A stretch of 59,944 nucleotides of DNA from a virus (taxonomy: Duplodnaviria > Caudoviricetes): the IMG/VR virus record IMGVR_UViG_3300005525_000005, positions 1-59,944 of that record, one strand, 5' to 3'. The first letter of the stretch is position 1. Every line of letters begins with the position of its first letter. The position numbers and the translations under genes are program-made. This document shows positions 1 to 43,173 of the stretch, piece by piece. The notes beneath the pieces are model-generated. The model was given only the letters and a program-made list of their open reading frames with translations. It made no database searches and was not told the origin of the DNA.

Positions 1-120
1 ACCACCAGCGTGAAGTCGCTATCGTCAAGGTCTTGAGCCGTAACTTGAGTGCCACGGGCATAGTTCTTGACAGCGATTTCAGGTTCCTTGATGATCTTCA
101 CCGAATCGCCCACATTGGCG
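1..120. repeat. Terminal direct repeat, copy 1 (circular assembly overlap)
   Basis: Identical to 59825-59944; falls inside the capsid ORF. Confidence 0.95.
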
Positions 121-263
121 ATTTCGCCAAAGTAGTCGTTGTTCGTGATAGCTTCAACAACGGAAGACTTACGGAAAGCAAGCTGAACTTGCTTGGAATA
201 GATAACCGGCGACCAGTTACCGTTAGGAAGATTGCCCCAACCCGGAGCAGCAGCAAATGCCAT
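1..263 (-). CDS. Major capsid protein, N-terminal part (continues into 59017-59944)
   Basis: ATG at 263 after AGGAG; reads MAFAAAPGWGNLPNGNWSPVIYSKQVQLAFRK...NNDYFGEIANVGDSVKIIKEPEI, in frame with the ORF at the window end. Confidence 0.92.
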   Translation of the reverse strand, partial: MAFAAAPGWGNLPNGNWSPVIYSKQVQLAFRKSSVVEAITNNDYFGEIANVGDSVKIIKEPEIAVKNYARGTQVTAQDLDDSDFTLV

Positions 264-410
264 TTTGGTTTCTCCTATGTTAGCATTTAATACTGTCTTA
301 GGTTTTTATCGGGCCTTGCGAGAAATAGGTGGTCAATATTGTTTGCTCTAGATTCAAATAATATATGACGGCTATCTGCTAGGGTTGTCGATACAACACT
401 TGACAGAAAC

Positions 411-439
411 AAAAAGACGTTGCCATTTCTAGCAACGTC
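411..439 (-). terminator. Intrinsic terminator after scaffold gene
   Basis: GACGTTGCT-agaaat-GGCAACGTC followed by TTTTT on the minus strand. Confidence 0.65.
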
Positions 440-474
440 CCCGTTAGAACAGAAAAATCTTAGCTTGTCAAGCT

Positions 475-1335
475 TTAGCGAGCATTTCCGCTAATATCGT
501 AAACAAATTTGCCAGAACGCATAGCCTTTACGATGTTTTCTTGATTTTGCTCATATTCAGCAATCGACATCTTCTGCACTTGGCTTTCGTAGAAGACGCC
601 TTCTTGATCGGCTGTAGCGCTTGGTGTAGCCCGTCCGCGAGTGTTGACAGCTTCAGCAGCACCCTTCGTTTCAGGAGCGCGTGTACGCTTGTTGATATTG
701 CGATCAGCCTTGTACAGATCGATGACACGTGCCGCAGAGCGGAAGTCATCATCGTTCTCGTACAGCGCATCCTGCACCCACTTAGGCTGCTCTTCAGCCC
801 AATCATGGAAGTCTTCGCTGTCTTCAATCTTGTCGAAGTCGGGATGTAGCTTCAACAATTCGACACGTGCTTTTTCACGCGAAGTATTGCGTTCACTCTC
901 ATCAACCTTACGCATACGCTCTTCAAGCGTCTTCGTTGTTTCCTTTGCCTTCTTCATCGCAATGCTTTCAACAATGCGATAGACATCAGGATATTGCTTT
1001 GCCCAAGAGTCGATGTCGTCTTCGTTTGCAGGCAGCTTCATTTGCTTTTCTGTTGCTGTCTGTACCAAAGCCTTCAACTCTTCGACTTCTTTGCGAAGAT
1101 CGTTTTCAACCTTCTGCGAATGCCGACGAAGATCGCTGTAACGCTTTTTGAAAGTCGCTTCTTCCGCAGACAGATTTTCCTCAGCAGCTTCTTCCTTAGC
1201 TGGTGCAGATTGATTTTGTTTGAGGATTTCAAGTTCTTCCTCGCCTTTCTTAATGCGCTCTTCCGATGCGTTTCGACGCATGGAGAATGGTGCAACCTTA
1301 GTTTGCACAGGGACAGCAATAGCAGCAGTCATCAA
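475..1335 (-). CDS. Capsid scaffolding protein
   Basis: Acidic coiled coil, FKKRYSDLRRH and HPDF motifs, directly upstream of the capsid gene. Confidence 0.8.
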   Translation of the reverse strand: MMTAAIAVPVQTKVAPFSMRRNASEERIKKGEEELEILKQNQSAPAKEEAAEENLSAEEATFKKRYSDLRRHSQKVENDLRKEVEELKALVQTATEKQMKLPANEDDIDSWAKQYPDVYRIVESIAMKKAKETTKTLEERMRKVDESERNTSREKARVELLKLHPDFDKIEDSEDFHDWAEEQPKWVQDALYENDDDFRSAARVIDLYKADRNINKRTRAPETKGAAEAVNTRGRATPSATADQEGVFYESQVQKMSIAEYEQNQENIVKAMRSGKFVYDISGNAR

Positions 1336-2994
1336 TTACCTTTCTTTAGTCGCTCGTTCTTTGAAGAAGCTAGGATCAATTTTAGGACTAGACATCCCCA
1401 TGTATGATCCAAAACCTAAACCTTCTTCGTCTTCTTCATCTGAGGATTTTTCCTCTTCATCCATTGTACCCCAGAAATCTCCAAACAAGGCATCGTCTGA
1501 TGTGAATTCAAATGGGTCAGACACTTCTACAGTGGGTGTTGTACCGAACAAAGAATTGGCAATTTCTACTCTAGTCAAATCAGCACCACCAAATGCTAAT
1601 TGATTTTGATAAATTGCATCAACAGCAGCATTCTTGGCGTCGTTAATAGCAGTGTTAATGTCAGTACCTCTAACAACTGCATCTGCCGCACGTTGTGCGA
1701 AAGAGCCAATTTGATCGTCAGAAAGACCAGTGTTTCTTAGAGCATCTGAAACGGCATTGCTTGCATTGGCAGCAATGCCGCCTGTACCAATAGCACCGGA
1801 AGTTGCTGCAGGAGCCTGTGCTCTTACGTCATCTTTATATATTACTTGATCAATCTGTGAAGCAGCAGAGGCTATACCTTCTGGTGTTGATGTGTCAACA
1901 CCGCTTGCTCTACCCATCGTTTCTCTATTTACCTCACCAAGATATGCATTAACTTTATCGGCTCCAAATTTATTAACAGCAAGACGAAATGGCAAAGTTA
2001 AAATGCCGGGAACACCCATTGTTGATGCAATTGCGCTTAATACAGTGGTTCCAAGTTTAACATTGGCATTGCTAATGCTTGAGTTCCATAAGTCTTCACC
2101 CATAACTTCACCAGCAGGCCCGCTACCACCCGGATTATAAATCATGTCGGCCCTACCGAAGTCAGCGAGATTTTTTCCGGTATAGGTACCATAAACGTCT
2201 TGTGTGCCCCATGTTTCACCGACAGTTTTTGATGTTGTTGTAGCTGTGTCTGTTTTATTAGTGAGGCCACCAGTGATTCCACCACCAACAACGCTAAAAC
2301 CACCAGCGCCACCAGTAGCACCACCTTCCTTTTCATCATCGTCGGTAGTAGTAGTAGTGCCTGTAGGCATGCCGATAGGTGTAGCACCATTAGGCATAGG
2401 CTTCATAGGCTTGCCATTGATAAACGGCATATAGAAGTCTTTTCCTGCGCTGTCTTTGAAGTAACGAATGTCTAGTGCGGGATTCTTTGGAGCCTTTGTC
2501 AAATCGTAATAGCTCTGATTTACGAAGCCACCAGTGTTAAAAGCCATCTCTGTTTGACGACCAGTTTCTTCCTTATCAACTTCCTTCATTATCTCATCAA
2601 TATCACTTTTAAACTTGTCATCATCTTCTTCACCTTCTTCGTAAGTGTCATCGGCTTTTTCACCAGCTTCTTCGGCATTGCCCATCTGACCAATGTCGTT
2701 CATACGCATCAAGCCCTTCTTAGCTTGATCACGCATCTGCATCAGGCGCTCAAGACCAATGAAGCGAACAACGTCAGCAGGAAAGACGAATTCGCCCGGT
2801 GACAACTTAGCGTCAACGTCATCTCTCACTTCTTCAGCGAGACTGCCCATAGGCACATCGTTGCCACTGACGGGATCGACGTCTTTGCCATCGTCCATCA
2901 TGCCACCTTCGGCAAACAACTTCTTTTTGTTGGTAGTAATGGCTCCGACGCCAACTTTATTACTACGTTTCTTTCCGAAGCCCATTGATTTCAT
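1336..2994 (-). CDS. Virion protein with DDVDAKLSPGEFV domain; candidate head maturation protease
   Basis: 552 aa ORF between portal and scaffold; carries FAEGGMM and FNTGGFV motifs; function inferred. Confidence 0.5.
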   Translation of the reverse strand: MKSMGFGKKRSNKVGVGAITTNKKKLFAEGGMMDDGKDVDPVSGNDVPMGSLAEEVRDDVDAKLSPGEFVFPADVVRFIGLERLMQMRDQAKKGLMRMNDIGQMGNAEEAGEKADDTYEEGEEDDDKFKSDIDEIMKEVDKEETGRQTEMAFNTGGFVNQSYYDLTKAPKNPALDIRYFKDSAGKDFYMPFINGKPMKPMPNGATPIGMPTGTTTTTDDDEKEGGATGGAGGFSVVGGGITGGLTNKTDTATTTSKTVGETWGTQDVYGTYTGKNLADFGRADMIYNPGGSGPAGEVMGEDLWNSSISNANVKLGTTVLSAIASTMGVPGILTLPFRLAVNKFGADKVNAYLGEVNRETMGRASGVDTSTPEGIASAASQIDQVIYKDDVRAQAPAATSGAIGTGGIAANASNAVSDALRNTGLSDDQIGSFAQRAADAVVRGTDINTAINDAKNAAVDAIYQNQLAFGGADLTRVEIANSLFGTTPTVEVSDPFEFTSDDALFGDFWGTMDEEEKSSDEEDEEGLGFGSYMGMSSPKIDPSFFKERATKER

Positions 2995-3184
2995 CCTTCA
3001 GTTTTGTGAGCGCTCGTAGCGCCATTATTGCGCCTTGCGCTCTATACACCTCTGACATATCTGTTGTCTGCTCAAGCTTACGTCGATTGTTGTCAATGTA
3101 AAACTCAAGCATTTCCATATACGCTTCCCACGTATGATGGTGTATCAGCGCAGATAGCTTTGGTAAATAACGCTTCTCTATCAT
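2963..3184 (-). CDS. Small portal-adjacent protein
   Basis: 73 aa, YRAQGAI motif, overlaps the portal stop and the next start. Confidence 0.7.
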   Translation of the reverse strand: MIEKRYLPKLSALIHHHTWEAYMEMLEFYIDNNRRKLEQTTDMSEVYRAQGAIMALRALTKLKDEINGLRKET

Positions 3185-5253
3185 TGCATCGGAGGCTGTT
3201 GAGGAGCAGCGCTAAAGCCTTGTTCGCCCGGAGTAGGAGCAGTGCCAACACCAATGTTGCCACCACCACCACCGCTAGTATCAGACACCGGCATTGGCTG
3301 TTCTCCCATTTCGGGAGCAGCGCCAGCAGGCGCGGCAGGAGGCTGCATCTTCTGCAGCAACAACGCTTGCTTTGCAGCTTCTTCCATGTCGTTAGAAACC
3401 AGCTCTGGGTCCAAGTCCATCGACTTAGCAATCTCTCGGACAATGTAGGGCAACTTAGCAAACGGAGCCAATGTCGGGTTCTGCACCACTTGCAGAAATT
3501 GCAACAGACGTTGACTACGCACTTCGTTAGCCATCAACGACTCTGTACCACGTGCGTTCACTTCCAAGTCACCAACAATATCAGGATCAGGATCAAACTG
3601 CATATTAAAGCTAAAGAAAGCTTCACCAATAGGACGAAGCAAATAGTCGTCCATGTTCTTAATGACAGTTTTGATATTGATGGAGGCAGCATTCATCAGC
3701 ATGGAGATGCCAGATGATGTGCGACCAACACCGCTAACGCCTGTTTGCCCGTGAGCAAACGACGGCATGCCTGTAGACTCATCGGCAAGCACTCGCGCCT
3801 TGTCGAATAGCTGAAGGTTGGTTTGAGCTACGTTAGGAAACGATGTTCCAAACAACGCCTGACCGGGTGCGCCACCTTGACGACGGAACACCTTGCCGGG
3901 AAAGACAGTGAGATCTTGTCCGGGAACAAGATTGGTTTCATCAACTTCGAAGACGAGATTGCCAGAGAGAACAGCGTTGTCTACAGCAAGACGCATGAAT
4001 CCATTCATCAACGTCTGTGTATCATCCATGTTCTCAGACACACCAACACCGTACATTGAGTACGGATTTAGCTCATACGGCACCACGTAATAGGGGATAC
4101 GAGCAGGCTTAAAAGGATTGAGGACAAGACGTATGACTTTGCCACCGCTGAACCAGATGTTTGCCTGCAATTCAACGCTGTCCCCAAACTCTTCTGGGAT
4201 GTCAATGTCGTTGTCACGTAGCAAATCGACATCAACAGCACCCCAATATTCCAATACTTCCCAACGCTCAACGCCCATGTTGGGTTGATAGTCGCTCAAG
4301 TCGTCTTCCCAATATTCTTTGATGTAGTTGGGACCATCAACAACAAGAGCATCAATAACGCTACCACGGAACATAGGTCGACGCTTTAGCTCAAGCATCT
4401 GCGTCTTACTAAGCTTATGTCGCTCAATGAAATAAGAAGACTCTGCAATGTTGCTAGCATCAGGATCAACATAGCTGTTCCAAACGCTAACATGCGACGA
4501 TTTCGGCATCGTCTTCATAATAGGCTTGTATTTGCCATTTTCCCAACGCGGATATTCCTTGTCTACAGCGAATGGGCCTTTCATAATGCCTGTGCCAAAC
4601 AATGCACATTCAAACGCTGTAGAACGAAGATGAGTGGCAGCACCGCTTTCGTCTAGCTGATCCCGTATCTTCTTATCCATCTTCTTCGCAGCAACTTGTG
4701 CAGGAGAAAACGTAATTTGTGTTGGAAGCTTGCCAGCGCCTTCTTTGACATTGAGTCCTTTGAAGGCATTCTTCATCGATCCGAGCAAGTCTCCAATCTT
4801 TGTGCCGGGAGGCAAAGGCTTGCTGATGTCAATGGCAGGCGCTGCAGGCTGTCCAGCAGCCTTCTTCTGCTCTTCTGCCATGTCGATGTGGACATGCTCT
4901 GCAACACCAATGGGCTGCGGTGTAGGATCAACAGAAAGAGGAAACTTGTTGCCGGAAAACAAGACATCTACGATTTGTCCATACGCAGCCAACACCTTTG
5001 TCTTCGTCACCTTGATGAATACGCGAGACTTCTCAGCCTCTGTAAACTTCATGTCGGGTCCATAGATGCCGCGATAGTTGCGATAGGCACGAAGCCAGCG
5101 TTCTTCGTCATATCGACGGGATTGCTTAGAACGGCTATATCGTTCTTTGACAAAGCTGACAAGAGAGCCACCAGAGAAGGTGGTTTCACCACTATCATCT
5201 GGTAAAGCTACAGACTTGTCATCCATAAAAGGTTTATCGTTACGAATAGCCAT
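3181..5253 (-). CDS. Portal protein
   Basis: About 690 aa after TerL; FIKVTKTKVLAAYGQ, ALFGTGIMKGP, RTSSGISML motifs; probable ATG at 5253. Confidence 0.88.
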   Translation of the reverse strand: MAIRNDKPFMDDKSVALPDDSGETTFSGGSLVSFVKERYSRSKQSRRYDEERWLRAYRNYRGIYGPDMKFTEAEKSRVFIKVTKTKVLAAYGQIVDVLFSGNKFPLSVDPTPQPIGVAEHVHIDMAEEQKKAAGQPAAPAIDISKPLPPGTKIGDLLGSMKNAFKGLNVKEGAGKLPTQITFSPAQVAAKKMDKKIRDQLDESGAATHLRSTAFECALFGTGIMKGPFAVDKEYPRWENGKYKPIMKTMPKSSHVSVWNSYVDPDASNIAESSYFIERHKLSKTQMLELKRRPMFRGSVIDALVVDGPNYIKEYWEDDLSDYQPNMGVERWEVLEYWGAVDVDLLRDNDIDIPEEFGDSVELQANIWFSGGKVIRLVLNPFKPARIPYYVVPYELNPYSMYGVGVSENMDDTQTLMNGFMRLAVDNAVLSGNLVFEVDETNLVPGQDLTVFPGKVFRRQGGAPGQALFGTSFPNVAQTNLQLFDKARVLADESTGMPSFAHGQTGVSGVGRTSSGISMLMNAASINIKTVIKNMDDYLLRPIGEAFFSFNMQFDPDPDIVGDLEVNARGTESLMANEVRSQRLLQFLQVVQNPTLAPFAKLPYIVREIAKSMDLDPELVSNDMEEAAKQALLLQKMQPPAAPAGAAPEMGEQPMPVSDTSGGGGGNIGVGTAPTPGEQGFSAAPQQPPMQ

Positions 5254-5289
5254 AAGTTTTCCTTGGTGTTCTGCGTTATATCTCAATTC

Positions 5290-5799
5290 TTACCGAATTG
5301 GGAAGTAGGGCTTGCAGTGTCGATTTCCCTTCGATAAGTTCCATTTCGCAGGAACAACTTGTATGTTGTAGGGATTGTGAAGACCTGATACTTGTTTAGA
5401 GCAAAGTGGATAAATGTGATCAAGATGCCAATCTGTTCCTAAATTTTTCTTACGGAGATCACATAGACGATATGCTTCTTCAAAAACAAACTCAAAAAAC
5501 TCAACGTCCCACTCAACAATTCTTTGTTTTCTTTTTGCGCGATTTATAGACTTTAATGAGTTTCTATACGCTTTATTTTTAATATCAAACTGACGATCAT
5601 ACTCTGCCTTTTTATCTTTACGTGAATCTCTATACTCTTGAGTTTTTTTACGATAAGCATCAGTTTTTGTAAAGTGTGACATGCACATTACACATGTTCC
5701 TGTAGATGTATATCTTAACGAATCGTGATTCTGAGGACACTTTTTATCACTACGATAAAAAAGTTCACTATTTTGTTTTGCAAGTTTACGATAGTTCAT
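5290..5799 (-). CDS. Free-standing HNH homing endonuclease
   Basis: WHLDHIYPL...SGLHNPYNIQVVPAKWNLSKGN; N-terminal CxxxH..CxxC; visibly AT-rich. Confidence 0.85.
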   Translation of the reverse strand: MNYRKLAKQNSELFYRSDKKCPQNHDSLRYTSTGTCVMCMSHFTKTDAYRKKTQEYRDSRKDKKAEYDRQFDIKNKAYRNSLKSINRAKRKQRIVEWDVEFFEFVFEEAYRLCDLRKKNLGTDWHLDHIYPLCSKQVSGLHNPYNIQVVPAKWNLSKGNRHCKPYFPIR

Positions 5800-5800
5800 A

Positions 5801-7390
5801 TCAATATCCAAAAGTTTTATCAAATGGATTATTGTATCGATCTTTATGGTTTGAATTGTAGTCAAAAATATTTGCACTACGCGGACGAGTCATTATTCCA
5901 TAACGTAGAGCGTCGATTGTATGGTCATTTTTTACCTTAGTATCGACATCCTCTGGATTATTTTTGTCTAGAGGAATTGAAGGAAGATCGGCAATCAATT
6001 GTGTGCAGTTTTGGAAGATGGTCATGCGAGGATGACCTGTGTAGGTGTCAATTTGCAGCCTACGATGTATCTCATTCTTACCAGCAATGCGACTACCAGC
6101 ACTTCTGTCAGAAGGTCGCCACTTACATCCCTTCAATATCATTCGTTCGGCAATAGATGGCCCAGTATCTCCACGTTTTGCCCAACAAGAGCTATCCAAC
6201 ACACCATATCTGATGCGTTCACCAGCTTCAAGCGTCAATATTTTCTCTGCCAAGTCTTCGGCAAGCACTTTTGTAACGTATAGCTCACGATACACCACCA
6301 AACTATCATCAGGAGCAACAGCAATCCATAGCACAGCACTAAAACTGCCATAGCCATAGTCGCAAGCACGAAAACGAGTCCAATCGGAAGGGATAGAATA
6401 AGGCTCGACCACATGAATTGATCGTTTGAACTCAGGAAATGCAGCACCTTCCGCAACATCCCAATCTCCTTCTAGTAGTTGACGTCTTTGATGCTCTGGC
6501 AAAGACAAAAGCATTGTCTCATAGTCACCAGACTTAGTCAAAAACGGATTATCAGAGAGCTTTGCAGGAATAAATCGACGCTTAAATAGCGGCTGTCCCT
6601 GTTTGCTGTGCCCTTCTGGGTAGGTCATCACATCGCCAGTGTCGATGTCAGTAGCCCAGAACGCTTCACCGGGTGGTGAAGGGTCAATGAACATCTTCTT
6701 AACCCATGCATGCCCTCTGTTGCCGGGGTTTGTAGACGCTCTCATATACACAGGCAAGTCAGACGCCGATGTACGAAGACGAGAACGCATGTAGTTCCAC
6801 GCAAACGGTGTTGCCCACTGTGTCAATTCGTCAAAACCAATCCAGCTAAACGACAAACCTTGATAGCGAAGCACATCTTCGTCTCTATCAAGGTAGGACA
6901 TCCACAGCCTGCCACCACCCGGCACTTCCCATTGAAACTTACGCTCACTCCATTTGATGCCGGGAATGATTTTGGGATAGAGTTCTTGAGACTTCCACAC
7001 CAGTTCTCGTAGTTCTTCTGTGGTGTGACGAAGAAGCAGCCCAGAAAACTGCGGATGCGTGATGTAGCGCAGAGGGTCTGCAAGCATCGCATAGCTCTTG
7101 CCACCGCCTGCAGCACCCCCATACAGCACCTCACGCTCAGAAGACGCTAGAAAGGCTGTCTGAGGCCCTGCATTGGGCTTGAAGATGACGTTCTGCAGCG
7201 CAGCATCATTCAATTCGCTCTGGGATTGGGTGTCGCTCGTAGAGACTGAGATATGGCTCTTGATCGAAGAAGGCTGTTTTGTCTTTTTTGCCGAGGGTGG
7301 TTTCGAAGGCTTTTGCCTTTTCGAGCGCGTCTTTGTATCTGCTGGCAAGGGCAACATAGAAATTGTATTTATGCTTTCGCCGTCTTTCAT
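5801..7390 (-). CDS. terL: Terminase large subunit (start uncertain)
   Basis: Walker A YGGAAGGGKS, Walker B IGFDELTQW, STNPG, nuclease DYGY and DHTIDALRY. Confidence 0.95.
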   Translation of the reverse strand: MKDGESINTISMLPLPADTKTRSKRQKPSKPPSAKKTKQPSSIKSHISVSTSDTQSQSELNDAALQNVIFKPNAGPQTAFLASSEREVLYGGAAGGGKSYAMLADPLRYITHPQFSGLLLRHTTEELRELVWKSQELYPKIIPGIKWSERKFQWEVPGGGRLWMSYLDRDEDVLRYQGLSFSWIGFDELTQWATPFAWNYMRSRLRTSASDLPVYMRASTNPGNRGHAWVKKMFIDPSPPGEAFWATDIDTGDVMTYPEGHSKQGQPLFKRRFIPAKLSDNPFLTKSGDYETMLLSLPEHQRRQLLEGDWDVAEGAAFPEFKRSIHVVEPYSIPSDWTRFRACDYGYGSFSAVLWIAVAPDDSLVVYRELYVTKVLAEDLAEKILTLEAGERIRYGVLDSSCWAKRGDTGPSIAERMILKGCKWRPSDRSAGSRIAGKNEIHRRLQIDTYTGHPRMTIFQNCTQLIADLPSIPLDKNNPEDVDTKVKNDHTIDALRYGIMTRPRSANIFDYNSNHKDRYNNPFDKTFGY

Positions 7391-7667
7391 CTCTAAGTCG
7401 TTTCCTTAACCCGTCGCCAGATATTGAGCGTCCTGTTTGCTTTGTAAGCCAGTTTGCAACCTGCTGAAATGTATATCGTTTGCAATATTGTTCAGCAATC
7501 TTTAGAGCATCAAGCTCTTTTGGTATTGGGACATACCAATTTGGATCGGATGGCTCAACATAATATCCAAAGGGAATGAGCATCCCTTTTCTAAGTCGTG
7601 GTATCTTGACGTATTCGGTGCGCTCTACAGGTTGCGGAAGAAGCCAGTGTCCTAAATCTCTAGTCAT
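7206..7667 (-). CDS. Putative DNA-binding protein (PFGY/HTH-like)
   Basis: IPFGY and VANWLTKQTGRSIS; coupled to the terminase genes. Confidence 0.55.
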   Translation of the reverse strand: MTRDLGHWLLPQPVERTEYVKIPRLRKGMLIPFGYYVEPSDPNWYVPIPKELDALKIAEQYCKRYTFQQVANWLTKQTGRSISGDGLRKRLRDERRRKHKYNFYVALASRYKDALEKAKAFETTLGKKDKTAFFDQEPYLSLYERHPIPERIE

Positions 7668-8022
7668 TGTCCTTCGGAGGCAAAATCATAATACCACCAC
7701 TCGACTGCACCTCTAGCTTCTCTGTCTTAACAACACCAGACCTGTCAAGCAAGTCTTTGGCAGCAGCCAGCTTTTCCTTGATGCCAAGCTCTGTAGGGTC
7801 GTCAATGCCGCTGATGACAGCCATAGCCGCTTTAGGCGCATGCATAGCAATGTATAGCTGCGTTGCTTCGATGATGTGCTCTTTCAGAGCAAACATCAAC
7901 TCCTTTGTAGGATAGTTTTTGCTGTAGCCTGCAAGCTCTTTAGCGCGAACAGGACTACCATTGGCATCACCAAGCAATGCATCAATGAATTTCTTCTGTT
8001 GTTCGTTGAGAGGTGTTTTCAT
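7660..8022 (-). CDS. Putative terminase small subunit
   Basis: LNEQQKKFI...AKELAGYS and AAKDLLDRSG resemble TerS motifs. Confidence 0.65.
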   Translation of the reverse strand: MKTPLNEQQKKFIDALLGDANGSPVRAKELAGYSKNYPTKELMFALKEHIIEATQLYIAMHAPKAAMAVISGIDDPTELGIKEKLAAAKDLLDRSGVVKTEKLEVQSSGGIMILPPKDND

Positions 8023-8024
8023 AA

Positions 8025-8360
8025 TTAGAGTTTGGTAGCGTAATATTCTTCTGTCTTGATAGAAACAGTGATGGCGCTGCTGCCAACATTGGCAAAGCCA
8101 GTTATTTTATCGTTCTTGTCTAGATAGAGAGGCGCAGTGATTTGAAGAATACTACGAGGCTTCATTCTCACAGCATCCATAATGTCATATGACACAGCAT
8201 CAACAGCACTATACCACTGTATCGTTACATTAATCGTTACATCACTTCCATTAGAAACAAAGATGCTGCTAACGTCAGCTTTGAATGCTGAGGGGACAAC
8301 GTAGATGTCTTGTGGACTTGTTGTCAGCGCCAACGCCACTGTTCGTTTCTTATTACTCAT
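8025..8360 (-). CDS. Beta-rich hypothetical virion protein
   Basis: Coupled ORF starting MSNKKRTV. Confidence 0.55.
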   Translation of the reverse strand: MSNKKRTVALALTTSPQDIYVVPSAFKADVSSIFVSNGSDVTINVTIQWYSAVDAVSYDIMDAVRMKPRSILQITAPLYLDKNDKITGFANVGSSAITVSIKTEEYYATKL

Positions 8361-8361
8361 A

Positions 8362-9621
8362 TCACCTACTGATTTCTTCCCAATCCAATGACGCCAACAC
8401 CTGATCACCGTTAGTTGCAGAGGTGCATATAAGCGTTAGTTCATATGGAGTGGGTGTAAACGAATTGCGTTCAAGCTGAAACTTAAACAAAGCTTCCTTC
8501 AAGATGTCAATTGTTGACGATCCCTGATTTGAGCCTTGGAAGAAACCAGAAGCAAGCGCTCTACCAGTGCCTATAGAAAATGATGTTCCGGTAGTGTTAT
8601 ATTCAACGGAGGAATCAGCACCAGCACTTGTCCAAGTGCCACCAGTTGTTGTTCCAGAAGCAACCAGTTGCCATTTATAGTTGGCATTGTTAGTGATACC
8701 AAGTATTGAGATGGCTGTAAGAATGACAATGCCATCAAGCCTAGTAGACTTCAGACGAATAGAAACAATGGGATAAATGGTGCCGGCTGTAGTGAGCGTC
8801 TTAGGGCTTGTTACATCAGTGCCGATAGTTTGCTGCACTCCACGAAGCTCATAGCCGCCTTCAGAAATAACAGACGAACACACTTGCTTCAATGTGCTAG
8901 AGGATGCCGTCGTTGATGTGTTGGTCATCTCGTAACGAAGCGGCAATGACGCAGTGGTGATGTACGTTGTAGTGATGAGGTTTGCGTGATGGAAACTATG
9001 TGCAGGAACAAAGACACCATCGATGACAAAACCCATCCGCACAGTGCCAAGACCAAGCCATTCAACATCCATGTACAAAATCTGTGCTTTGGATGCGTCA
9101 AGAGTGATGCCGGACTCACCTGTACCATCAAGCTTGTCTTGATTCCAACTCGCCTGAGCTACACGTGTATTGGCTGTAGAGCCGCTAACACCGCTACGCT
9201 CAACAAAATATAGGGCTGTGCCGTCTCGTTCGAAATAGAGCCCGTTGCTGGCTCCAAAATATCCACATCGCTGACGCAAATTTGCTTTTGCTTCTCCGAA
9301 CACAAACGTAGACATTACAAGCAAACTCTTACCGGGCTGATAAGAAAACACCTTCGTTGTTTCACGAATAATTTCATCACCGCTGGCTGTACCAACAGAA
9401 AGATTGATGAGCCCTTCGTTAGCGCTGAAGGTGGCAGAAGCAGTGCCTGTAATTTTGTCTGCCCACAAGTCATTGTCACTGAATCGATGTGACGAATCAA
9501 ACAATGTCATTGGGCTGCTAACACGCACTCGCCCAAAGGCATCGACGGAAGTGCCGCCAATAGTGACGGTGTTTCCGGTTTCGTCAATGCGTACCAGCGC
9601 GGGATAGCTTGTTATGCTCAC
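8362..9621 (-). CDS. Putative structural/accessory virion protein
   Basis: 419 aa; DAFGRVRVS, YQPGKS, EWLGLG motifs; S/T/G-rich. Confidence 0.6.
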   Translation of the reverse strand: MSITSYPALVRIDETGNTVTIGGTSVDAFGRVRVSSPMTLFDSSHRFSDNDLWADKITGTASATFSANEGLINLSVGTASGDEIIRETTKVFSYQPGKSLLVMSTFVFGEAKANLRQRCGYFGASNGLYFERDGTALYFVERSGVSGSTANTRVAQASWNQDKLDGTGESGITLDASKAQILYMDVEWLGLGTVRMGFVIDGVFVPAHSFHHANLITTTYITTASLPLRYEMTNTSTTASSSTLKQVCSSVISEGGYELRGVQQTIGTDVTSPKTLTTAGTIYPIVSIRLKSTRLDGIVILTAISILGITNNANYKWQLVASGTTTGGTWTSAGADSSVEYNTTGTSFSIGTGRALASGFFQGSNQGSSTIDILKEALFKFQLERNSFTPTPYELTLICTSATNGDQVLASLDWEEISR

Positions 9622-9773
9622 TTCTTTTTCCTACGAGCTTCAGACAACGCAATAGCAACAGCCTGTTTCTGACTCTTGACAACAGGAGCCTTCTTACCAG
9701 CACCGCTATGCAGAGCGCCAGCCTTAAACTCCTTCATCACTTTGCCAACTTTGGCTTGTTGCTTAGGTGTCAT
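9618..9773 (-). CDS. Small basic protein (DUF6496-like), missing from ORF track
   Basis: 51 aa MTPKQQAKVGKVMKEFKAGALHSG...KQAVAIALSEARRKKK; fills the gap exactly. Confidence 0.75.
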   Translation of the reverse strand: MTPKQQAKVGKVMKEFKAGALHSGAGKKAPVVKSQKQAVAIALSEARRKKK

Positions 9774-9979
9774 CACTTCTTCTTACTCCCGCACATGCCA
9801 CCCATATTCATCTTCGTCTTGCCTTTGCCCTTAGCAGGCATAGCAATCATAATGGCTACAGCAGCACCGGGCTTCTTGCCTTTGACAGCACCACCCTTTG
9901 CCATTTTCTTCTCAGCCATCATGCACTTGCCTGCTTTCTTACAGGCAGCGGTGTTGGGACATCCTGCACATGGCTTCAT
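9773..9979 (-). CDS. Small Lys-rich protein with two GG motifs
   Basis: KMAKGGAV, KMNMGGMC; N-terminal CxxC..C..C. Confidence 0.7.
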   Translation of the reverse strand: MKPCAGCPNTAACKKAGKCMMAEKKMAKGGAVKGKKPGAAVAIMIAMPAKGKGKTKMNMGGMCGSKKK

Positions 9980-10356
9980 TTCTTTTTCCCCTTTGCTGCA
10001 ACAGTTTTCTTCTTAACAACACCACCCTTTGCAAAGTCTGATGGCATAGTAAATTGTTTACCTACAGCACCCCTAAGAATTTGTTCTGCACCAGCTTTGT
10101 TGCCGGTACGACGAAGATAACGCAAAGCATCTGCTGATGTATATCGACGTTGTTGTGCTGGAGCTGTTGGTGCAGCACCACCGCCCGGCATATACGGAGC
10201 AGATTGTGGAGCAGACTTAGCCATTTCAGATTGCTGTGCCATCATTTGTGGTTGTTTAGCTGCCATATCTTTCGGAGGTGCTTGCATTCCTGTATTAGGA
10301 ACGCCACCACCCATAGCATACTTCTTAGCAGGCTTCTTTGTCATCATCGTCTTCAT
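9976..10356 (-). CDS. Lys-rich protein with two GG motifs
   Basis: KYAMGGGV, DFAKGGVV; overlapping start/stop. Confidence 0.7.
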   Translation of the reverse strand: MKTMMTKKPAKKYAMGGGVPNTGMQAPPKDMAAKQPQMMAQQSEMAKSAPQSAPYMPGGGAAPTAPAQQRRYTSADALRYLRRTGNKAGAEQILRGAVGKQFTMPSDFAKGGVVKKKTVAAKGKKK

Positions 10357-11102
10357 TTCTTCTTTCCTTTCACAGCACCGCCATACGCCAGCTTCTTAGG
10401 CGCAATGGCTTTCGTCTTCATAGAAGACGCACGTGCAAGCATGGGCTTCTTAGGGCCTTTAACGCCTGCATAGATGGTGGGGACGCTGCCACCCTTTGCC
10501 AAGCCAACAGACGCCCGCGCACGTTCGCGAGTGTCGTCAGAGATGTTCTCATGTTGTCCTTCATCTACCTTAGCAGACTTAGGCTTTGCCATCTCTGTTG
10601 TATAGCGCTTGCCCTGCCACGTAAACGTAGCCTTGTCGTCCTTACGCGCAGCAGCAAACGCTTCCTTGAACGTCATGTCAGCCTTCTTAGGCTCTTCCTT
10701 CTTAGCCTCTTCTTTACGCGGAGCAGGCTTGTCTTCATCCATTGTCCGAGGAGCAACAGAAACACGCTTAGGAGCGCTGTCTTCTTCGTCATCCATCATA
10801 GCCCTACCAGCACCATAGCCAGCGAGCCCAGCGCCTGCTACAGCGCCTGCACGGCTACCTGTACGAAGCATAGCCCTACCACCAGCCTCTTGCACACTAC
10901 GACGACGAAGTTCAGCGCCCTTCTTGATGTCTTCAGCTTCGTCAACACGTGCGCCCAAAGCCTTACGCATCTGAGCAACATCGCTCTTGGTTTCCTTGAC
11001 AACATCGTCGTCAAGATCGCCAGCAAGCCTGTTCTTGCCTTTGTTAGCAGCACCACGACGGGTAGTGCCACCAACACCCCTAGTCAACAAACGAGCTAAC
11101 AT
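10353..11102 (-). CDS. Putative internal virion protein with two GG motifs
   Basis: TFKEAFAAARK...FTWQGKRYTT module; LAKGGSV, LAYGGAV. Confidence 0.7.
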   Translation of the reverse strand: MLARLLTRGVGGTTRRGAANKGKNRLAGDLDDDVVKETKSDVAQMRKALGARVDEAEDIKKGAELRRRSVQEAGGRAMLRTGSRAGAVAGAGLAGYGAGRAMMDDEEDSAPKRVSVAPRTMDEDKPAPRKEEAKKEEPKKADMTFKEAFAAARKDDKATFTWQGKRYTTEMAKPKSAKVDEGQHENISDDTRERARASVGLAKGGSVPTIYAGVKGPKKPMLARASSMKTKAIAPKKLAYGGAVKGKKK

Positions 11103-11105
11103 ATT

Positions 11106-11477
11106 TCATTTCTTCCTATATTTAGCTGTCTTAGCAGCTACGCTTTCTGGTTGAGCAACAAATTGCTTACCAGCTTTACCACCAGCAGCCTTAGCAGCGT
11201 TTGTGGCTTTCTTTTCGCTATCACTCAAAGCAGACCAAGCCGCTTTAGGCAAATAACGCCGCTTTCCATCAGAGGGCTTCCCAGAAGACGTTGTCCACTC
11301 CTGCTTAGTCCATTTTGTCATAGACTTTTGAGCTTCTGTCTTTTCTCCTGTATAGCCACCACCCTTATCCTTATACATCTTACCAGCAAGCTGCATGGCT
11401 CTAGCTGAATGACCACCCATCTTAGCCTTCGCCTGAGCCTTTGCAGACTCCCACAGCCTTTCGTTAGTGCGTCCCAT
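11106..11477 (-). CDS. Basic hypothetical protein (DUF5872-like)
   Basis: SARAMQL, GGGY, KWTKQEW, RYLPKAAW motifs. Confidence 0.65.
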   Translation of the reverse strand: MGRTNERLWESAKAQAKAKMGGHSARAMQLAGKMYKDKGGGYTGEKTEAQKSMTKWTKQEWTTSSGKPSDGKRRYLPKAAWSALSDSEKKATNAAKAAGGKAGKQFVAQPESVAAKTAKYRKK

Positions 11478-11749
11478 TAACGTAAACTTCCGTCTTGCTT
11501 ACGCTTAACGCTTCTGTTCTTGCTGGCAGCGACAACGCGCAAATTACCACGCCCATTGCCACCACCCTTCGACAAAGGCTTTTTGTGATCGACATCACGC
11601 CCGTCTCCTTTGTAAGCCCTTCCCTCTTCCATCATCAACGCTCTAGCAGCATTACGCTTTGAACGCTCTTTGACACGTGTGGGCTTGTTGTCCTTTTCCC
11701 ACTCAAGCTCGGCAGAATAGTTTCTCTGCCCATTCTTCATAAACGGCAT
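11477..11749 (-). CDS. Small HNH endonuclease (possibly packaging-associated)
   Basis: DVDHKKPLSKGGGNGRGNLRVV...NRS. Confidence 0.8.
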   Translation of the reverse strand: MPFMKNGQRNYSAELEWEKDNKPTRVKERSKRNAARALMMEEGRAYKGDGRDVDHKKPLSKGGGNGRGNLRVVAASKNRSVKRKQDGSLR

Positions 11750-11754
11750 ATGTG

Positions 11755-12021
11755 TTAATGGAAAAATTTACTACCAAACTGAATAAGAGCAAACAACGTA
11801 ATGGCAAGGCTCCATACACCAATGCCTCTGTTCACCCACATCTGCACCGTCTTGTCTGTCTTGCCTACAGCAGTCTCAACAGCTACAACACGCTGCTCCA
11901 CTCTACCAATACGTTCGCCTTGATTTGCCAGCCGCTCTTCAACAAGAACAAGCTTCATAACAGCATCAGCCAACTTATCCACTTTGCCTTCAAGGCGACG
12001 AAAGTCTTCATCATTCATCAT
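11755..12021 (-). CDS. Coiled-coil protein with C-terminal TM helix (holin-like)
   Basis: Heptad region then GIGVWSLAITLFALIQFG. Confidence 0.55.
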   Translation of the reverse strand: MMNDEDFRRLEGKVDKLADAVMKLVLVEERLANQGERIGRVEQRVVAVETAVGKTDKTVQMWVNRGIGVWSLAITLFALIQFGSKFFH

Positions 12022-12022
12022 G

Positions 12023-12274
12023 TTAACATGCCCAAGCTTTTAATGACAACGCCTTGCGCGTTGGCTTACCTTTATCATCCTTCATAGGCCCCGGCATAGC
12101 TCCCATGCGGGAGCAAAAGCTCTTGCGCCTGTTAGCGTCCTTCTTCGTCTTTGGATTGGGTGCTGGAGGCTTCAGATTGCCACCAGTGGCTTTGTTGTAA
12201 GAGGCTCTGCCTTTGGCATTGAGGCCGCCTTTGGCATCCTGTCCCTCTTTACGTTGCCACGCTAAAGTTTTCAT
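12023..12274 (-). CDS. Small basic protein (DUF6321-like)
   Basis: GGLNAKGRASYN...RRKSFCSRM...SLKAWAC. Confidence 0.7.
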   Translation of the reverse strand: MKTLAWQRKEGQDAKGGLNAKGRASYNKATGGNLKPPAPNPKTKKDANRRKSFCSRMGAMPGPMKDDKGKPTRKALSLKAWAC

Positions 12275-12319
12275 AGGAGCGCGTTGTATCACTAAAAGAA
12301 ACAACAGACAACATGTCTG

Positions 12320-12595
12320 CTATTTCTTCCTTCTATTAACAACACCCTCATACCAGCCTTCGGCACGCATCGCTTTTTCAACAAGAGGAAGGGGTATAAC
12401 AAATCCTGTATGCTTCTCTAATGCACTTCGTAAATAATAGACATCAGAATGAAACGCAACTGTCTTTACTTCTTCTCGTTGCTTAAAAACTTCCTTCATT
12501 GCTAACGAATAGTAGCTATGAGGAGGCTTATTAATTTTGTTCTTAAGTTCTTCTCGCGTTTGAAATGGCATTGAAATGGCTTTCTGATGAAACAT
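12320..12595 (-). CDS. Hypothetical protein, first gene of the late arm
   Basis: ORF with HSDVYYLRSALE motif; start uncertain. Confidence 0.6.
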   Translation of the reverse strand: MFHQKAISMPFQTREELKNKINKPPHSYYSLAMKEVFKQREEVKTVAFHSDVYYLRSALEKHTGFVIPLPLVEKAMRAEGWYEGVVNRRKK

Positions 12596-12849
12596 AGAGC
12601 TTCAACAAAAATACATTCTAAACAACTATGCATGTGTTGTCAACTATATAGCTATATAGATGTTATCGTTGCTATAGCGCTGATAGCGCTAATGAAATCG
12701 TTGATGTATCAACAAAATAAACAATGATGTATCAATGATTCCATCAGTGCAAATTAGAAAACGTTGACAAGTGTTAAGGATATTTTTAACTGATAGCGCT
12801 GATGTATATTCATTAATTACTTCAACACTATGTTATTACTATTGTGTAG

Positions 12850-13030
12850 ACGGACTTAGCCTTCCTGCTTAGTCCTTTACACAACATGGTTGCGACTCGG
12901 AAGCCTTTCGACATTAGGACGCTGCCTTCGCCATCCTGTTGCGCTGTTTCAATGTCTATCCCGCAGTAGCGCTTTAACGTCTTTGCAGACGCTGCCAGAT
13001 GCTGCCGTTATCCGTTCATCCGACAGCGCC
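12850..13030 (-). ncRNA. Candidate structured RNA / late leader
   Basis: Consecutive hairpins just downstream of a promoter; no credible ORF. Confidence 0.4.
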
Positions 13031-13060
13031 AGTTTTACACGCGGTGACATGTGTTGTCAA
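13031..13060 (-). promoter_or_regulatory. Leftward sigma70-like promoter
   Basis: TTGACA-18 bp-AAAACT. Confidence 0.5.
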
Positions 13061-13353
13061 GAGCTTTGGCAAAAATGATGTTGTTCCTAAGATCGTCAGT
13101 ATGCTGATGAAAGTGACATTGTCGTTGGAGCTGTGTTTGGATGGTGGCGTGTGGGGGAGACTATGTTAGTAGGCGCTAACATGTGTTAAAATACCTGTTC
13201 TGTGTGTCAGCGTGTATATAGTAGCGCTGCCACCCCCCAGTGGCCCACGCCCGCCCCCGTCATGCCAGCGCCTCACGCACAGCGCATCAGGCATGTGCGA
13301 TCACGCATAATGCGCTGCGTCATGTGATCACGTGTGTGTGGATTTCCTATAGA

Positions 13354-13366
13354 AATCAACAACTTA
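13354..13366 (+). promoter_or_regulatory. IHF consensus site
   Basis: AATCAAcaacTTA matches WATCAANNNNTTR. Confidence 0.45.
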
Positions 13367-13589
13367 GCTCTATGTCTATGACATAAACGAAATTGCCGTC
13401 AGACGGTGAAAATCGTTATATAAGTAGTCGCTTATATAAGCCTTCATCGAAGATGAAGAGACGATGTATGACATCAACCCCCATCACCCTACGTCACAAT
13501 GCACACCCCCTATGATGCGTGACATCATGCGCCTACACCGCATATACGCGCATGCACGGCAACGTAGTTGCCAATGAAGGACGACAAAG

Positions 13590-13679
13590 ACCCTACGTTT
13601 GACTCGGACATTAAAAGGTCGGCACAATGCATCCCATCGAAACAACGGCATCCCGCCGAGTCCTGAAAGGAAACATAGC
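13590..13679 (+). promoter_or_regulatory. Early promoter/leader cassette 1
   Basis: ACCCTACGT-TTGACT-18-CACAAT-GCATCCCATCG...TCCTGAAAGGAAAC. Confidence 0.75.
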
Positions 13680-13901
13680 ATGTGCAATCAAGTGGAAGTT
13701 ATCCGCATCGTCTTTCACGAAGTGAAAGGGGATGATGGCAAGTGGACGAAGACGAGCCGTGCGTTTATGAGCAATGCTGACGCAGTGCGTGAGATTGAAA
13801 CGCTGCAAGAGTTTGCAAAGCAAAGGCGCCCATTCATCCGTAAGGTGGTGCCTGAGCCTATGCTGACGGTGCTGTACCCGACACAAAACCCCTTCGCTTG
13901 A
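13680..13901 (+). CDS. Early hypothetical protein
   Basis: ATG after AAAGGAAAC RBS; 73 aa. Confidence 0.65.
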   Translation: MCNQVEVIRIVFHEVKGDDGKWTKTSRAFMSNADAVREIETLQEFAKQRRPFIRKVVPEPMLTVLYPTQNPFA

Positions 13902-13975
13902 CAGGGTTTTTCGTAAGCCCCGATAATGCATCCCATCGACGGCACAGTGTCATCGTCTTCCTGAAAGGAAACATC
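13888..13975 (+). promoter_or_regulatory. Early promoter/leader cassette 2
   Basis: ACCCCTTCGC-TTGACA-18-GATAAT-GCATCCCATCG...TTCCTGAAAGGAAAC. Confidence 0.75.
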
Positions 13976-18425: not shown

Positions 18426-18635
18426 GTGATAAGCGAAGTCGATCTGCGTGATTGGGAACAGCTTGATACAGTGCCGCTGTATTCTGTGCCGCGTAACACC
18501 TACATCAAATTGGGTGACGACTACTTCTTCTTCGATCACATCGATGGCATGTATTCATTCTGTCTCGACATGAATAATATGGTCTATCACATCATGGCAA
18601 CAACCCCTGTCATTCCTCTGAGGAAACCTGCATGA
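18426..18635 (+). CDS. Hypothetical protein
   Basis: FDHIDGMYSFC motif; AAAGGA RBS. Confidence 0.7.
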   Translation: MISEVDLRDWEQLDTVPLYSVPRNTYIKLGDDYFFFDHIDGMYSFCLDMNNMVYHIMATTPVIPLRKPA

Positions 18636-19459
18636 AACGTGAACAAGTTGTCGGTATGTTCGTCGGCGTATTCCTTGGCGATATGCTGGGTGCGCCATAC
18701 GAGTTTCAAGATGAGATGGACGTTGACGACGTTGTTCTCAAGACAGGCGGCGCTCACAAGGTGTCGTTGGGCGAATACACCGACGACGGAGCGCTGACGT
18801 TAGCTCTTGCAGAGAGCTACATTGCCCGTGGCTGCTTCGATGCACACGATGCCAGCAATCGGTTTAAGCAATGGAAGACCACTGGCAAGTATGGCACACG
18901 TGGCTATGCCTTCGACATTGGACGCACCACTGCAGCAGCCATCGACAGGATGCCTTCTGTTGTGTACGCTGCAGATGGTGGAGACATGGACAGTGGCAAC
19001 GGTAGCATGATGCGTATTGCTGCCTGCATTGCTGCCAACCACAACAACCCAATGAAGGCATTAGCAGATAGTATAGCTGCCAGCCTGATGACGCATGGCA
19101 ACAGCGACATCCTCGCCTATACCACAGCATATGTCGATGAGATATTTAATGGAGCAATGTCGCGATATAAGTCGCTGAAGTCTCATCCAAATAAATATGC
19201 CCATGCCAGAGGCACGGTGATGTATGCATACAACGCTGCTCGACATGCCCTGCATCATGGTGGCAGAGATGGTGGCGCTGTGCTGCGTCATGCCATATCA
19301 TATGGACACGACACCGACACCAACGCTGCCATTGCTGGTGCTTGGGTAGGTGCGAAGTATGGCATCGATTGCTTCCCACAGGAATATATCGATGTGCTGC
19401 AGAATAAGCAACGCATCTTCGATGTGGCAAATAAGTTGTTTGAGATGGGAGAGATGTGA
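18632..19459 (+). CDS. ADP-ribosylglycohydrolase (DraG/ARH family)
   Basis: GDMLGAPYEF, YTDD, GNGSMMR, DTDTNAAIAGAWVGAKYG. Confidence 0.92.
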   Translation: MKREQVVGMFVGVFLGDMLGAPYEFQDEMDVDDVVLKTGGAHKVSLGEYTDDGALTLALAESYIARGCFDAHDASNRFKQWKTTGKYGTRGYAFDIGRTTAAAIDRMPSVVYAADGGDMDSGNGSMMRIAACIAANHNNPMKALADSIAASLMTHGNSDILAYTTAYVDEIFNGAMSRYKSLKSHPNKYAHARGTVMYAYNAARHALHHGGRDGGAVLRHAISYGHDTDTNAAIAGAWVGAKYGIDCFPQEYIDVLQNKQRIFDVANKLFEMGEM

Positions 19460-22081: not shown

Positions 22082-22395
22082 CCTGCCGCTACCCATATTG
22101 CGATGCTGGAGAAATGGGAGCATTCTGCAAAGATGAATGCCAATCATGTCCACACGGTGTAGACGATGGCAATTGCAAAGAATGCTATGAACAAAACACT
22201 CGCGAAGTATGCAAACATTTCAATCCAGTAGACCAGCCTTGCGACAAATGCAAAGTCGAAAACGCCGCATCCAAAGAACGTCAATTCATCATCAATTTTC
22301 TGGAGAGTATGCATGAGCGCTGTCTTGGAACACACAACTACTACCTCCACGCAGCCCATTGCATCCGCAACCTGCCTTCCACTAAATCTACGTAG
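22078..22395 (+). CDS. Cys-rich hypothetical protein
   Basis: Several CxxC/CxH pairs; coupled. Confidence 0.55.
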   Translation: MTCRYPYCDAGEMGAFCKDECQSCPHGVDDGNCKECYEQNTREVCKHFNPVDQPCDKCKVENAASKERQFIINFLESMHERCLGTHNYYLHAAHCIRNLPSTKST

Positions 22396-35730: not shown

Positions 35731-35757
35731 AGAAAGCCGCTTTACAGCGGCTTCTTT
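35731..35757. terminator. Bidirectional terminator between converging arms
   Basis: AAGCCGCT-TTAC-AGCGGCTT with A-rich and T-rich flanks. Confidence 0.75.
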
Positions 35758-42980: not shown

Positions 42981-43173
42981 TCTTTGCCTTCACTTTCTGT
43001 GCTGTCTTACGGATGGTGGCGATGTAAGAAGCGATGGTGTCGATGTAGTCGCTCTCAGATGATGGCATCTTATCCTTTCGAGACATGATGCCGCCTTCGC
43101 TCTTTGAAGGCTTCTTGTTCATCTTATTGATGCGCTCTTCAACCTGCGCCATAAACTTTTTGTAGTTTTGCAT
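42970..43173 (-). CDS. Small basic protein
   Basis: 67 aa, coupled; SEGGIMSRK. Confidence 0.65.
   Translation of the reverse strand: MQNYKKFMAQVEERINKMNKKPSKSEGGIMSRKDKMPSSESDYIDTIASYIATIRKTAQKVKAKNET

Follow-up and report, generated by a model that had tools for sequence, protein, structure and literature searches.

The window analysed here is the whole of IMG/VR virus record IMGVR_UViG_3300005525_000005, 59,944 bases, and represents a complete phage genome. Its two ends carry an exact 120-bp direct repeat (1-120 and 59825-59944), and IMG/VR places the record in its class of direct terminal repeats. The portal protein shares 60-64% identity with its counterparts in Roseobacter phage CRP-1 and Puniceispirillum phage HMO-2011, and the genome is therefore that of an HMO-2011-type short-tailed phage (marine-type). 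Late genes occupy the minus strand from 1 to 13,931 and from 35,757 to the end, with the replication (early) genes on the plus strand between them. The gene order is small and large terminase, an endonuclease VII-like open reading frame (ORF), portal, an ORF of 73 amino acids (aa), a 552-aa ORF, a 286-aa ORF and the major capsid protein. Our subject is a seven-residue peptide built around Gly-Gly (GG), called the tag below, which recurs in late proteins of this phage, together with the 552-aa protein, which carries one copy on each side of a conserved core.

The tag was defined by the regular expression [FYLM][ANQ].GG.[VMC], which was composed after the hits were seen. In the window it matches exactly 12 heptapeptides in seven minus-strand late ORFs and nowhere else, and all 12 copies listed in the first-pass annotation were recovered. 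The two weaker copies it had mentioned, TGGLI and EGGIM, exist as well, in ORFs of 152 and 67 aa. The carriers and their tags are the following.

1336-2994, minus strand: acidic protein of 552 aa, isoelectric point (pI) 4.4, between the portal gene and a scaffold-like gene; conserved N-terminal module and variable remainder
2896-2916, minus strand: tag FAEGGMM, starting at residue 27 of the 552-aa protein (regular-expression match)
2521-2541, minus strand: tag FNTGGFV, starting at residue 152 of the 552-aa protein (regular-expression match)
9773-9979, minus strand: basic protein of 68 aa, pI 10.2; tags MAKGGAV (9884-9904, residue 26) and MNMGGMC (9791-9811, residue 57)
9976-10356, minus strand: basic protein of 126 aa, pI 10.6; tags YAMGGGV (10300-10320, residue 13) and FAKGGVV (10015-10035, residue 108)
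10353-11102, minus strand: basic protein of 249 aa, pI 10.1; tags LAKGGSV (10482-10502, residue 201) and LAYGGAV (10371-10391, residue 238)
35757-37493, minus strand: late protein of 578 aa; tag FNRGGLV (35769-35789, residue 569), three residues from the C-terminus
37496-41005, minus strand: late protein of 1169 aa, internal or ejection-type by size and position; tag FAKGGMV (37526-37546, residue 1154), nine residues from the C-terminus
43183-46188, minus strand: late protein of 1001 aa; twin tags MAKGGVV (46030-46050, residue 47) and YQTGGDV (46003-46023, residue 56)
42540-42560, minus strand: weaker copy EETGGLI in the 152-aa ORF, 8 residues from the C-terminus, with ARRKK after it
43084-43104, minus strand: weaker copy KSEGGIM in the 67-aa ORF

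The tag is a real and enriched feature of the late proteins. The 12 copies fall in 12,550 aa of late-strand ORFs, against none in 7,254 aa of early ORFs, and 500 per-protein residue shuffles of the late set gave a mean of 0.23 tags and a maximum of 2. Because the expression was written post hoc, the ratio of observed to shuffled tags in the window is inflated; independent data from relatives agree with it. We collected 80 related viral-contig loci through their portal genes (61-90% identity). Their same-strand ORFs other than the 552-aa homologue contain 55 strict tags, where 100 shuffles averaged 3.9 and never exceeded 8, and the 165,992 aa of their opposite-strand ORFs contain no tag at all. 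The counts in five near-complete relatives are 9, 6, 6, 2 and 7, relative to shuffle means of 0.21-0.38. The excess in late over early proteins that the first-pass annotation had proposed as a check is thus present, and the relatives support it. Its statement that most tags lie near termini also holds: 11 of the 12 window tags are within 60 residues of a terminus, the exception being residue 152 of the 552-aa protein, as are 53 of the 55 in relatives.

A logo of 56 unique free-standing copies gives the consensus KK-[M/Y/F/L]-A-K-G-G-x-V-KKK, with flanks dominated by Lys. These basic flanks are missing from the copies within the 552-aa module and from those in the tape-measure proteins described below. 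The residue after GG varies (A, M, S, D or V). Codons for identical tag residues differ among the 12 copies, and the tag is therefore a protein-level motif and not a DNA repeat. Our literature search, which included the accessible text of the ISME J 2022 paper on this phage group, found no description of it.

Apart from the tag, the seven carriers are unrelated. Outside it, their best BLASTP pair aligns A/Q-rich sequence over 236 aa at 22% identity; what matches between the 249-aa and 68-aa proteins is the tag and its basic tail only. The carriers sit in the gene positions of podophage internal proteins, and from gene position we infer that they are virion proteins. The 1001-aa protein keeps its tag position across relatives. 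Its twin tag closes a conserved N-terminal domain of ~60 residues, beyond which the sequences of relatives cannot be aligned. The twin tag is retained in HMO-2011 gp25, in CRP-1 gp35 and in all five complete contigs that we used for the internal-protein block in relatives, with two strict copies in four of the five. AlphaFold2 predicts helices for this N-domain, with block means of the predicted local distance difference test (pLDDT) of ~69-76, and an unstructured twin tag (pLDDT <50 at residues 49-65). The terminal tag of the 1169-aa protein is present in one of the five complete relatives (G002). A 504-aa protein used as a probe retrieved two loci only, and orthologue alignments of the 504-aa and 1169-aa proteins, at 16-22% identity, are too divergent to use. 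Taken together, the tag is enriched, terminal and portable, and its position is conserved across relatives.

In related loci there are small proteins that consist of little else than tandem AKGG-x-x-KKK units, for example a 124-aa ORF in L041 and a 56-aa ORF in L076. Directly after the last tag, several small basic proteins (L012, L027, L028, L064, L080 and L087) have a second conserved C-terminal peptide, NCGASxPPAxKGKK. The 68-aa ORF of the window ends in a shorter look-alike, GGMCGSKKK. A 52-aa DUF6496 protein is encoded separately in the window (9618-9776, minus strand), and in four relatives DUF6496 is fused behind a tag-bearing N-terminal part (L012:3169-3471, L024:3544-3972, L027:5581-5994 and L036:6829-7341). 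The tag therefore stands at the seam between the split and the fused forms.

The 552-aa protein holds its two tags in a larger conserved unit, consisting of a first tag, a LSPGEFVFPADVV core and a second tag. The first-pass annotation had described a core bracketed by two tags, and this is what is found.

2521-2916, minus strand: conserved module, residues 27-158; tag 1 FAEGGMM, Gly-Glu (GE) core, helix and acidic linker, tag 2 FNTGGFV
2767-2823, minus strand: GE core DDVDAKLSPGEFVFPADVV, residues 58-76, between the two tags; contains LSPGEFV

Alignments of 11 and 48 family members show strong conservation from residue 27 to ~205 and a hypervariable remainder. In the 11 sequences G30, G31, G155 and G156 never vary, nor does most of the stretch 40-107, and in the 48 this is largely true as well. 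The family is large, with 2218 metagenomic homologues of 303-966 aa and another 448 of 967-2760 aa. Among the 120 longer members listed, 112 of 123 strict tags precede the GE core by 21-60 residues or follow it by 40-99. An AlphaFold2 model of residues 1-210, made with a 48-row alignment, has a mean pLDDT of 55.5, with ~41-57 over residues 1-170 and <50 at residues 24-37, which hold tag 1. Only a small beta unit at 174-207 is predicted with confidence. A conserved stretch that is predicted to be unstructured alone is typical of a segment that orders only in assembly. The family profile found nothing relevant among all PDB sequences at E up to 10. A joint prediction of the portal (701 aa, 31-row alignment) with residues 15-170 of the 552-aa protein (43 rows) gave no answer, with a score of 0.00 in both runs, and carries no weight either way.

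Neither Pfam nor PHROG gave a match to the 552-aa protein (0 each), NCBIfam gave no meaningful one, and a Pfam scan recognises no payload domain in it. Longer members of its family carry LPD23, ART-PolyVal, Phage_L5_gp82, tail-lysozyme and LysM, DUF4214 or Hint domains; effector or LPD domains were present in ten of ten longer members scanned, which had been picked from the 120 listed for their existing Pfam labels. Domains of this kind characterise polyvalent proteins, effectors with several domains that are packaged and injected by phages (PMC5512222). On this ground we read the 552-aa protein as probably a cargo-type protein of the particle interior whose conserved module would serve in anchoring or ejection.

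Tag number and module can be compared across genomes to a limited extent. Our strand-blind ORF picker recovers 8 of the 12 window tags. Antisense ORFs displace the 249-aa and 68-aa genes in it, and tag counts in other genomes are therefore lower bounds. The ORFs responsible, both on the plus strand, are one of 253 aa (10338-11099) over the 249-aa gene and one of 135 aa (9609-10016) over the 68-aa and 126-aa genes; 4 of 12 tags are lost through them. With this picker the eight module-bearing genomes, including the window, have 8, 4, 3, 9, 6, 6, 2 and 7 tags and two module-less relatives have 1 and 0, a sample that is small and in which relatedness is a confounder. Of the 46 portal-based loci that extend 2.5 kb or more downstream, 38 have the module by a stricter regular expression and five of the other eight have variant cores by eye, which leaves almost no module-less contrast.

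The module has relatives outside this group of phages. A tblastn search with module residues 21-110 against 50,697 phage records (2.3 billion bases) returned 14 HMO-2011-type records and then the tape-measure genes of Gordonia phages, the best of them at E 2e-4 (65 residues, 42% identical). Of the 95 records with a match at E up to 10, 65 belong to Gordonia phages. In pairwise BLASTP the module matches the tape-measure protein of Gordonia phage Skysand (gp41, residues ~1040-1125) at E 1e-11, its core aligning with GEHMWDVTDV, and Rhizobium phage RHph_TM3_14A gp086 at E 2e-9, tag on tag, its core aligning with GEFVIPEDVV. Tape-measure families are three of the six best PHROG matches, led by phrog_37649 (E 3.9e-4). 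Lambda gpH has the same layout, with FATGGFT at 733, GEFVF at 755 and YATGGYV at 778, and its pairwise E is 6e-4 (core on GEFVFTKEAT). The module does not match TIGR01541 or PF09718 at E up to 10, both of which lambda gpH matches (PF09718 at 627-701, TIGR01541 at 472-813). These alignments show the module to be homologous to a segment near the C-terminal part of siphophage tape-measure proteins. As here, lambda gpH (~733-790) and Skysand gp41 have a hydrophobic-A-x-G-G-x-hydrophobic tag, a GE(F/H)(V/M) core with a short helix, and a second tag. Here, however, the module is N-terminal and belongs to a podophage protein encoded beside the portal, not to a tail ruler, and free-standing tags occur on six further proteins of the phage. 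In Skysand, the stretch directly after the module was read by eye as a cell-wall peptidase motif.

Lambda gpH is itself processed. According to the accessible text of a recent study, it is cut in its glycine-rich C-terminal region to give gpH* and a fragment of ~14 kDa, at a site and by an enzyme that the authors call unknown; the region of the module lies in the C-terminal fragment, gpHC, which is unresolved in their cryo-electron microscopy (PMC12617516). We computed that a cut after G737 would leave fragments of 80.1 and 12.2 kDa, and one after residue 712 would leave 77.9 and 14.4 kDa; gel estimates cannot separate these two candidates. Proteolysis has been proposed as general for tape-measure proteins (PMC11972413).

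The first-pass annotation had offered the 552-aa protein as a candidate protease cognate to the tags, possibly self-processing. We find no support for this: neither a peptidase family nor a prohead maturation protease profile (HK97, T4 gp21, or lambda gpC/ClpP types) matches the protein, its family has no invariant His or Cys in either 11 or 48 members, residues 1-170 are disordered in the AlphaFold2 model, and the similarity of the module is to tape-measure proteins. No conserved catalytic Ser/His or Ser/Lys in a folded domain was found in it, although a Ser/Lys pair is not formally excludable by sequence. The bracketing tags are fixed flanks of the module at set spacing, not substrates placed next to an enzyme. 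The annotation was right that no classical head protease is recognisable: among the 85 ORFs scanned there was no head protease family, and the only peptidase-named Pfam match at E up to 0.01 was Peptidase_S74, a chaperone, in the 707-aa tail fibre. The same Pfam scan found no Gly-Gly-specific cysteine protease domain, either clan CE adenain-like or of the C39 bacteriocin-leader peptidase type. A 104-aa acidic ORF (46185-46499, minus strand; phrog_1233, function unknown) lies between the lysozyme gene and the 1001-aa tagged gene and has an HExxH motif, HESLH. It has no Pfam match at E up to 10, and its homologues (34 records) are confined to the closest relative and to Ralstonia T7-like phages, where they stand beside tail-fibre genes. 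It is absent from tag-bearing HMO-2011 and CRP phages and is therefore not the cognate enzyme. The large gene after the portal in such phages is accordingly not to be annotated as a head protease. What remains plausible of the original idea is the tag itself and, judged from sequence, a possible import into the capsid.

We tentatively favour, ahead of the alternatives considered below, an explanation in which the tag serves in docking or packaging and is not cleaved. It would be a portable short linear motif borne by proteins that the particle stores and that leave it through the tail when a host is infected. Remaining intact, it would tie the flexible ends of these unrelated proteins to one common partner while the particle is assembled. 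The 552-aa protein would be a cargo or polyvalent-type internal protein, and its N-terminal module of tag, GE core and tag may be the ancestral setting of the motif. Candidate receptors include the portal, the scaffold, the module itself and the tail or portal channel. That the tag binds something and is not cut is our inference from its terminal position, its portability, its conservation of position beside divergent sequence, its predicted disorder, the nature of its carriers, the conserved residues after C-terminal tags and the lack of a recognisable protease among the 85 ORFs scanned. The invariant GG pairs of the 552-aa family and the twin tag kept while the 1001-aa sequences diverge both count towards docking, as do the gene positions of the carriers and the presence of the module in tape-measure proteins, which likewise leave through the tail. 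Low pLDDT at the tags in both AlphaFold2 models is as expected of a motif that orders only on binding. The conserved tail NCGASxPPAxKGKK after C-terminal tags fits a tail that is retained better than one that is discarded.

Several points weigh against docking. No binding partner was identified, and our literature search found no virion proteomics for this phage group; in the accessible text of the ISME J 2022 paper the words 'proteomic' and 'protease' have 0 occurrences. The number of strict tags varies widely, from 12 here to 4 in HMO-2011, 3 in CRP-1 and 2 in the relative G004, and the terminal tag of the 1169-aa protein is absent from all four named orthologues (HMO-2011, CRP-1, HTVC033P and phiM6). 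It follows that no tag is indispensable by itself. HTVC033P and phiM6 have a portal of the same family but lack the module, with 1 and 0 tags, and must therefore package their internal proteins by other means. As tape-measure proteins lie outside the capsid, a purely capsid-specific receptor cannot explain the range of the module. Finally, the cut in lambda gpH falls somewhere in the vicinity of its own copy of the module, which lends cleavage at the tag some probability.

Cleavage is the strongest of the alternatives, although we consider it unlikely. The tag would be recognised by a maturation protease, either host-encoded or an unrecognised phage enzyme, that trims the basic core proteins and releases modules. 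Lambda gpH, with its two tags around a GEFVF core and a cut that has not been placed, fits this idea, as do the proposed generality of tape-measure proteolysis and the tags at the seam before DUF6496, which is fused in relatives and separate here. The small carriers are also very basic, like adenovirus core precursors. However, the genome encodes no protease family besides the S74 chaperone of the fibre, and the HExxH ORF is missing from the tag-bearing HMO-2011 and CRP phages. Cutting at the C-terminal tags would remove only 3-12 residues, and these tails are conserved in relatives. The variable residue after GG makes a self-cleaving nucleophile unlikely, and the hydrophobic residue is one position further from GG than in the adenovirus consensus. 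A more specific form of the idea seems to us still less probable than cleavage in general. In it the tag would be the site, and the unit of tag, GE core and tag the determinant, of a proteolytic maturation common to tape-measure and podophage internal proteins; lambda gpH would be cut at FATGG/FT or YATGG/YV, and the basic core proteins would be processed in the manner of adenovirus by a host enzyme or an unrecognised activity.

Somewhat less likely than cleavage in general is a role in binding DNA. The small carriers would be protamine-like, AKGG-x-V-KKK would be a DNA-binding or charge-neutralising unit, and single copies would tether large proteins to DNA. The pI values of the small carriers (10.1-10.6), the tandem-unit proteins of relatives, the Lys-dominated flanks and a possible counter-ion in the acidic 552-aa protein are all in keeping with it. 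The copies in the module and in tape-measure proteins nevertheless have no basic flanks, charge does not explain the invariant hydrophobic, Ala and Val positions, and no match to a known DNA-binding family was obtained.

We give a similarly low likelihood to a role after ejection, in which the motif would act in the host envelope, joining ejected proteins into a trans-envelope conduit or binding an envelope component. This would explain why the motif is common to tape-measure and podophage internal proteins, as exit through the tail is a property that all carriers have in common. The position of the Skysand module before a putative cell-wall peptidase motif and the lysozyme and LysM domains on some members of the 552-aa family are suggestive in the same direction. 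There is no similarity to a known envelope-binding domain, however, and the small, very basic carriers do not resemble parts of a conduit; sequence does not separate an envelope role from docking inside the particle. Lastly, it is hardly credible that the tags arose by chance or from the composition of late proteins that are rich in Gly and Lys and of low complexity: the motif was defined post hoc and GG dipeptides are more frequent in late proteins (91) than in early ones (22), but shuffles that keep composition yield 0.23 tags against 12 and 3.9 against 55, tag positions are conserved across orthologues, and the antisense ORFs of the related loci are free of them.

Neighbouring genes bear on the remaining claim of the first-pass annotation, that the 552-aa gene lies between portal and scaffold. 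The portal is confirmed by profile matches, whereas the scaffold is one by position only.

3181-5286, minus strand: portal protein, upstream of the 552-aa gene; PF23899 SU10_portal (2.8e-21) and phrog_332 (1.2e-74)
475-1335, minus strand: acidic protein of 286 aa, scaffold-like by position only; phrog_13678 (function unknown) and a weak coiled-coil-type Pfam match only
59017-59944, minus strand: major capsid protein, C-terminal part; phrog_267 (1.9e-55) and PF25209

From its start at 263 the major capsid gene continues across the terminal-repeat junction to 59017 and encodes 356 aa once one copy of the repeat is removed. Three endonuclease VII or HNH-type ORFs lie amid the late genes, all on the minus strand: in the gap between terminase and portal (5290-5877), among the small basic proteins (11477-11749) and beside the capsid gene (58553-58999). 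They look like homing-type endonucleases. The early region contains a tyrosine integrase gene (PF00589, 7.6e-19; 22313-23503, plus strand), as do HMO-2011 and CRP-1, and a gene for an ADP-ribosylglycohydrolase (PF03747, 3.6e-41; 18632-19459, plus strand). Residues 294-325 of the 578-aa protein match RNA 2'-phosphotransferase (KptA/Tpt1) models weakly (E 0.007, far below cut-off). The 578-aa protein and the glycohydrolase could be an injected ADP-ribosyl-type enzyme and its eraser.

How short-tailed phages choose the proteins that are loaded into the head and injected is poorly understood outside T4. If docking is correct, a portable tag of seven residues would be a sequence-based predictor of the injected proteome in a very abundant group of marine and freshwater phages, and foreign proteins could be brought into particles with its help. 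Through the tape-measure proteins the tag is also connected to the question of where, and by what, lambda gpH is cut. We regard the tag as a portable targeting-type motif with a possible mechanistic link to tape-measure proteins.

Among known systems, the adenovirus protease, a clan CE cysteine protease of a eukaryotic virus, cuts after (M/I/L)-x-G-G in basic core precursors. Its sites resemble the tag in having Gly-Gly with an upstream hydrophobic residue on very basic internal proteins; they differ by an offset of one residue in the hydrophobic position and by the protease itself, of whose clan no member was found among the 85 ORFs. Polyvalent proteins match the longer members of the 552-aa family in carrying a variable payload on a conserved part and in their virion-gene context, although the accessible text of their description names MuF or portal fusions as anchors and has 0 occurrences each of 'glycine' and 'linker' (PMC5512222). 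Cargo protein 1 of Bacteroides phage crAss001, gp45, is stored and ejected, and its residues 425-552 bind the portal wing in 12 copies, as reported in the accessible part of its structural description (PMC10172136). By eye, gp45 has A-F/Y-G-G peptides at both edges of the portal-bound domain and GEVVY inside it, but these peptides are in another register, with the hydrophobic residue directly before GG. A language-model search ranked PF25725 (crAss_CARG1) clusters first, at a sub-threshold 0.84, which is a lead only. Homology of the module to PF25725 or gp45 failed three sequence tests (hhalign E 0.14; BLASTP E 0.81; no PF25725 match in the genome at E up to 10), and the module is therefore not filed under PF25725. 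Homologues of the gp45 portal-binding domain were all near-identical, at 98-100%, among the 120 matches listed. The capsid targeting sequence of T4 is a short peptide common to unrelated internal proteins that are held inside the head and injected; it is N-terminal only and is removed by the gp21 prohead protease. The tag is likewise a short terminal peptide on unrelated proteins. It differs in standing at either end or doubled, in having an unrelated sequence and in the lack of any protease found with it. By sequence, the closest relative is the tape-measure segment, and the closest functional analogue would be the capsid targeting sequence of T4.

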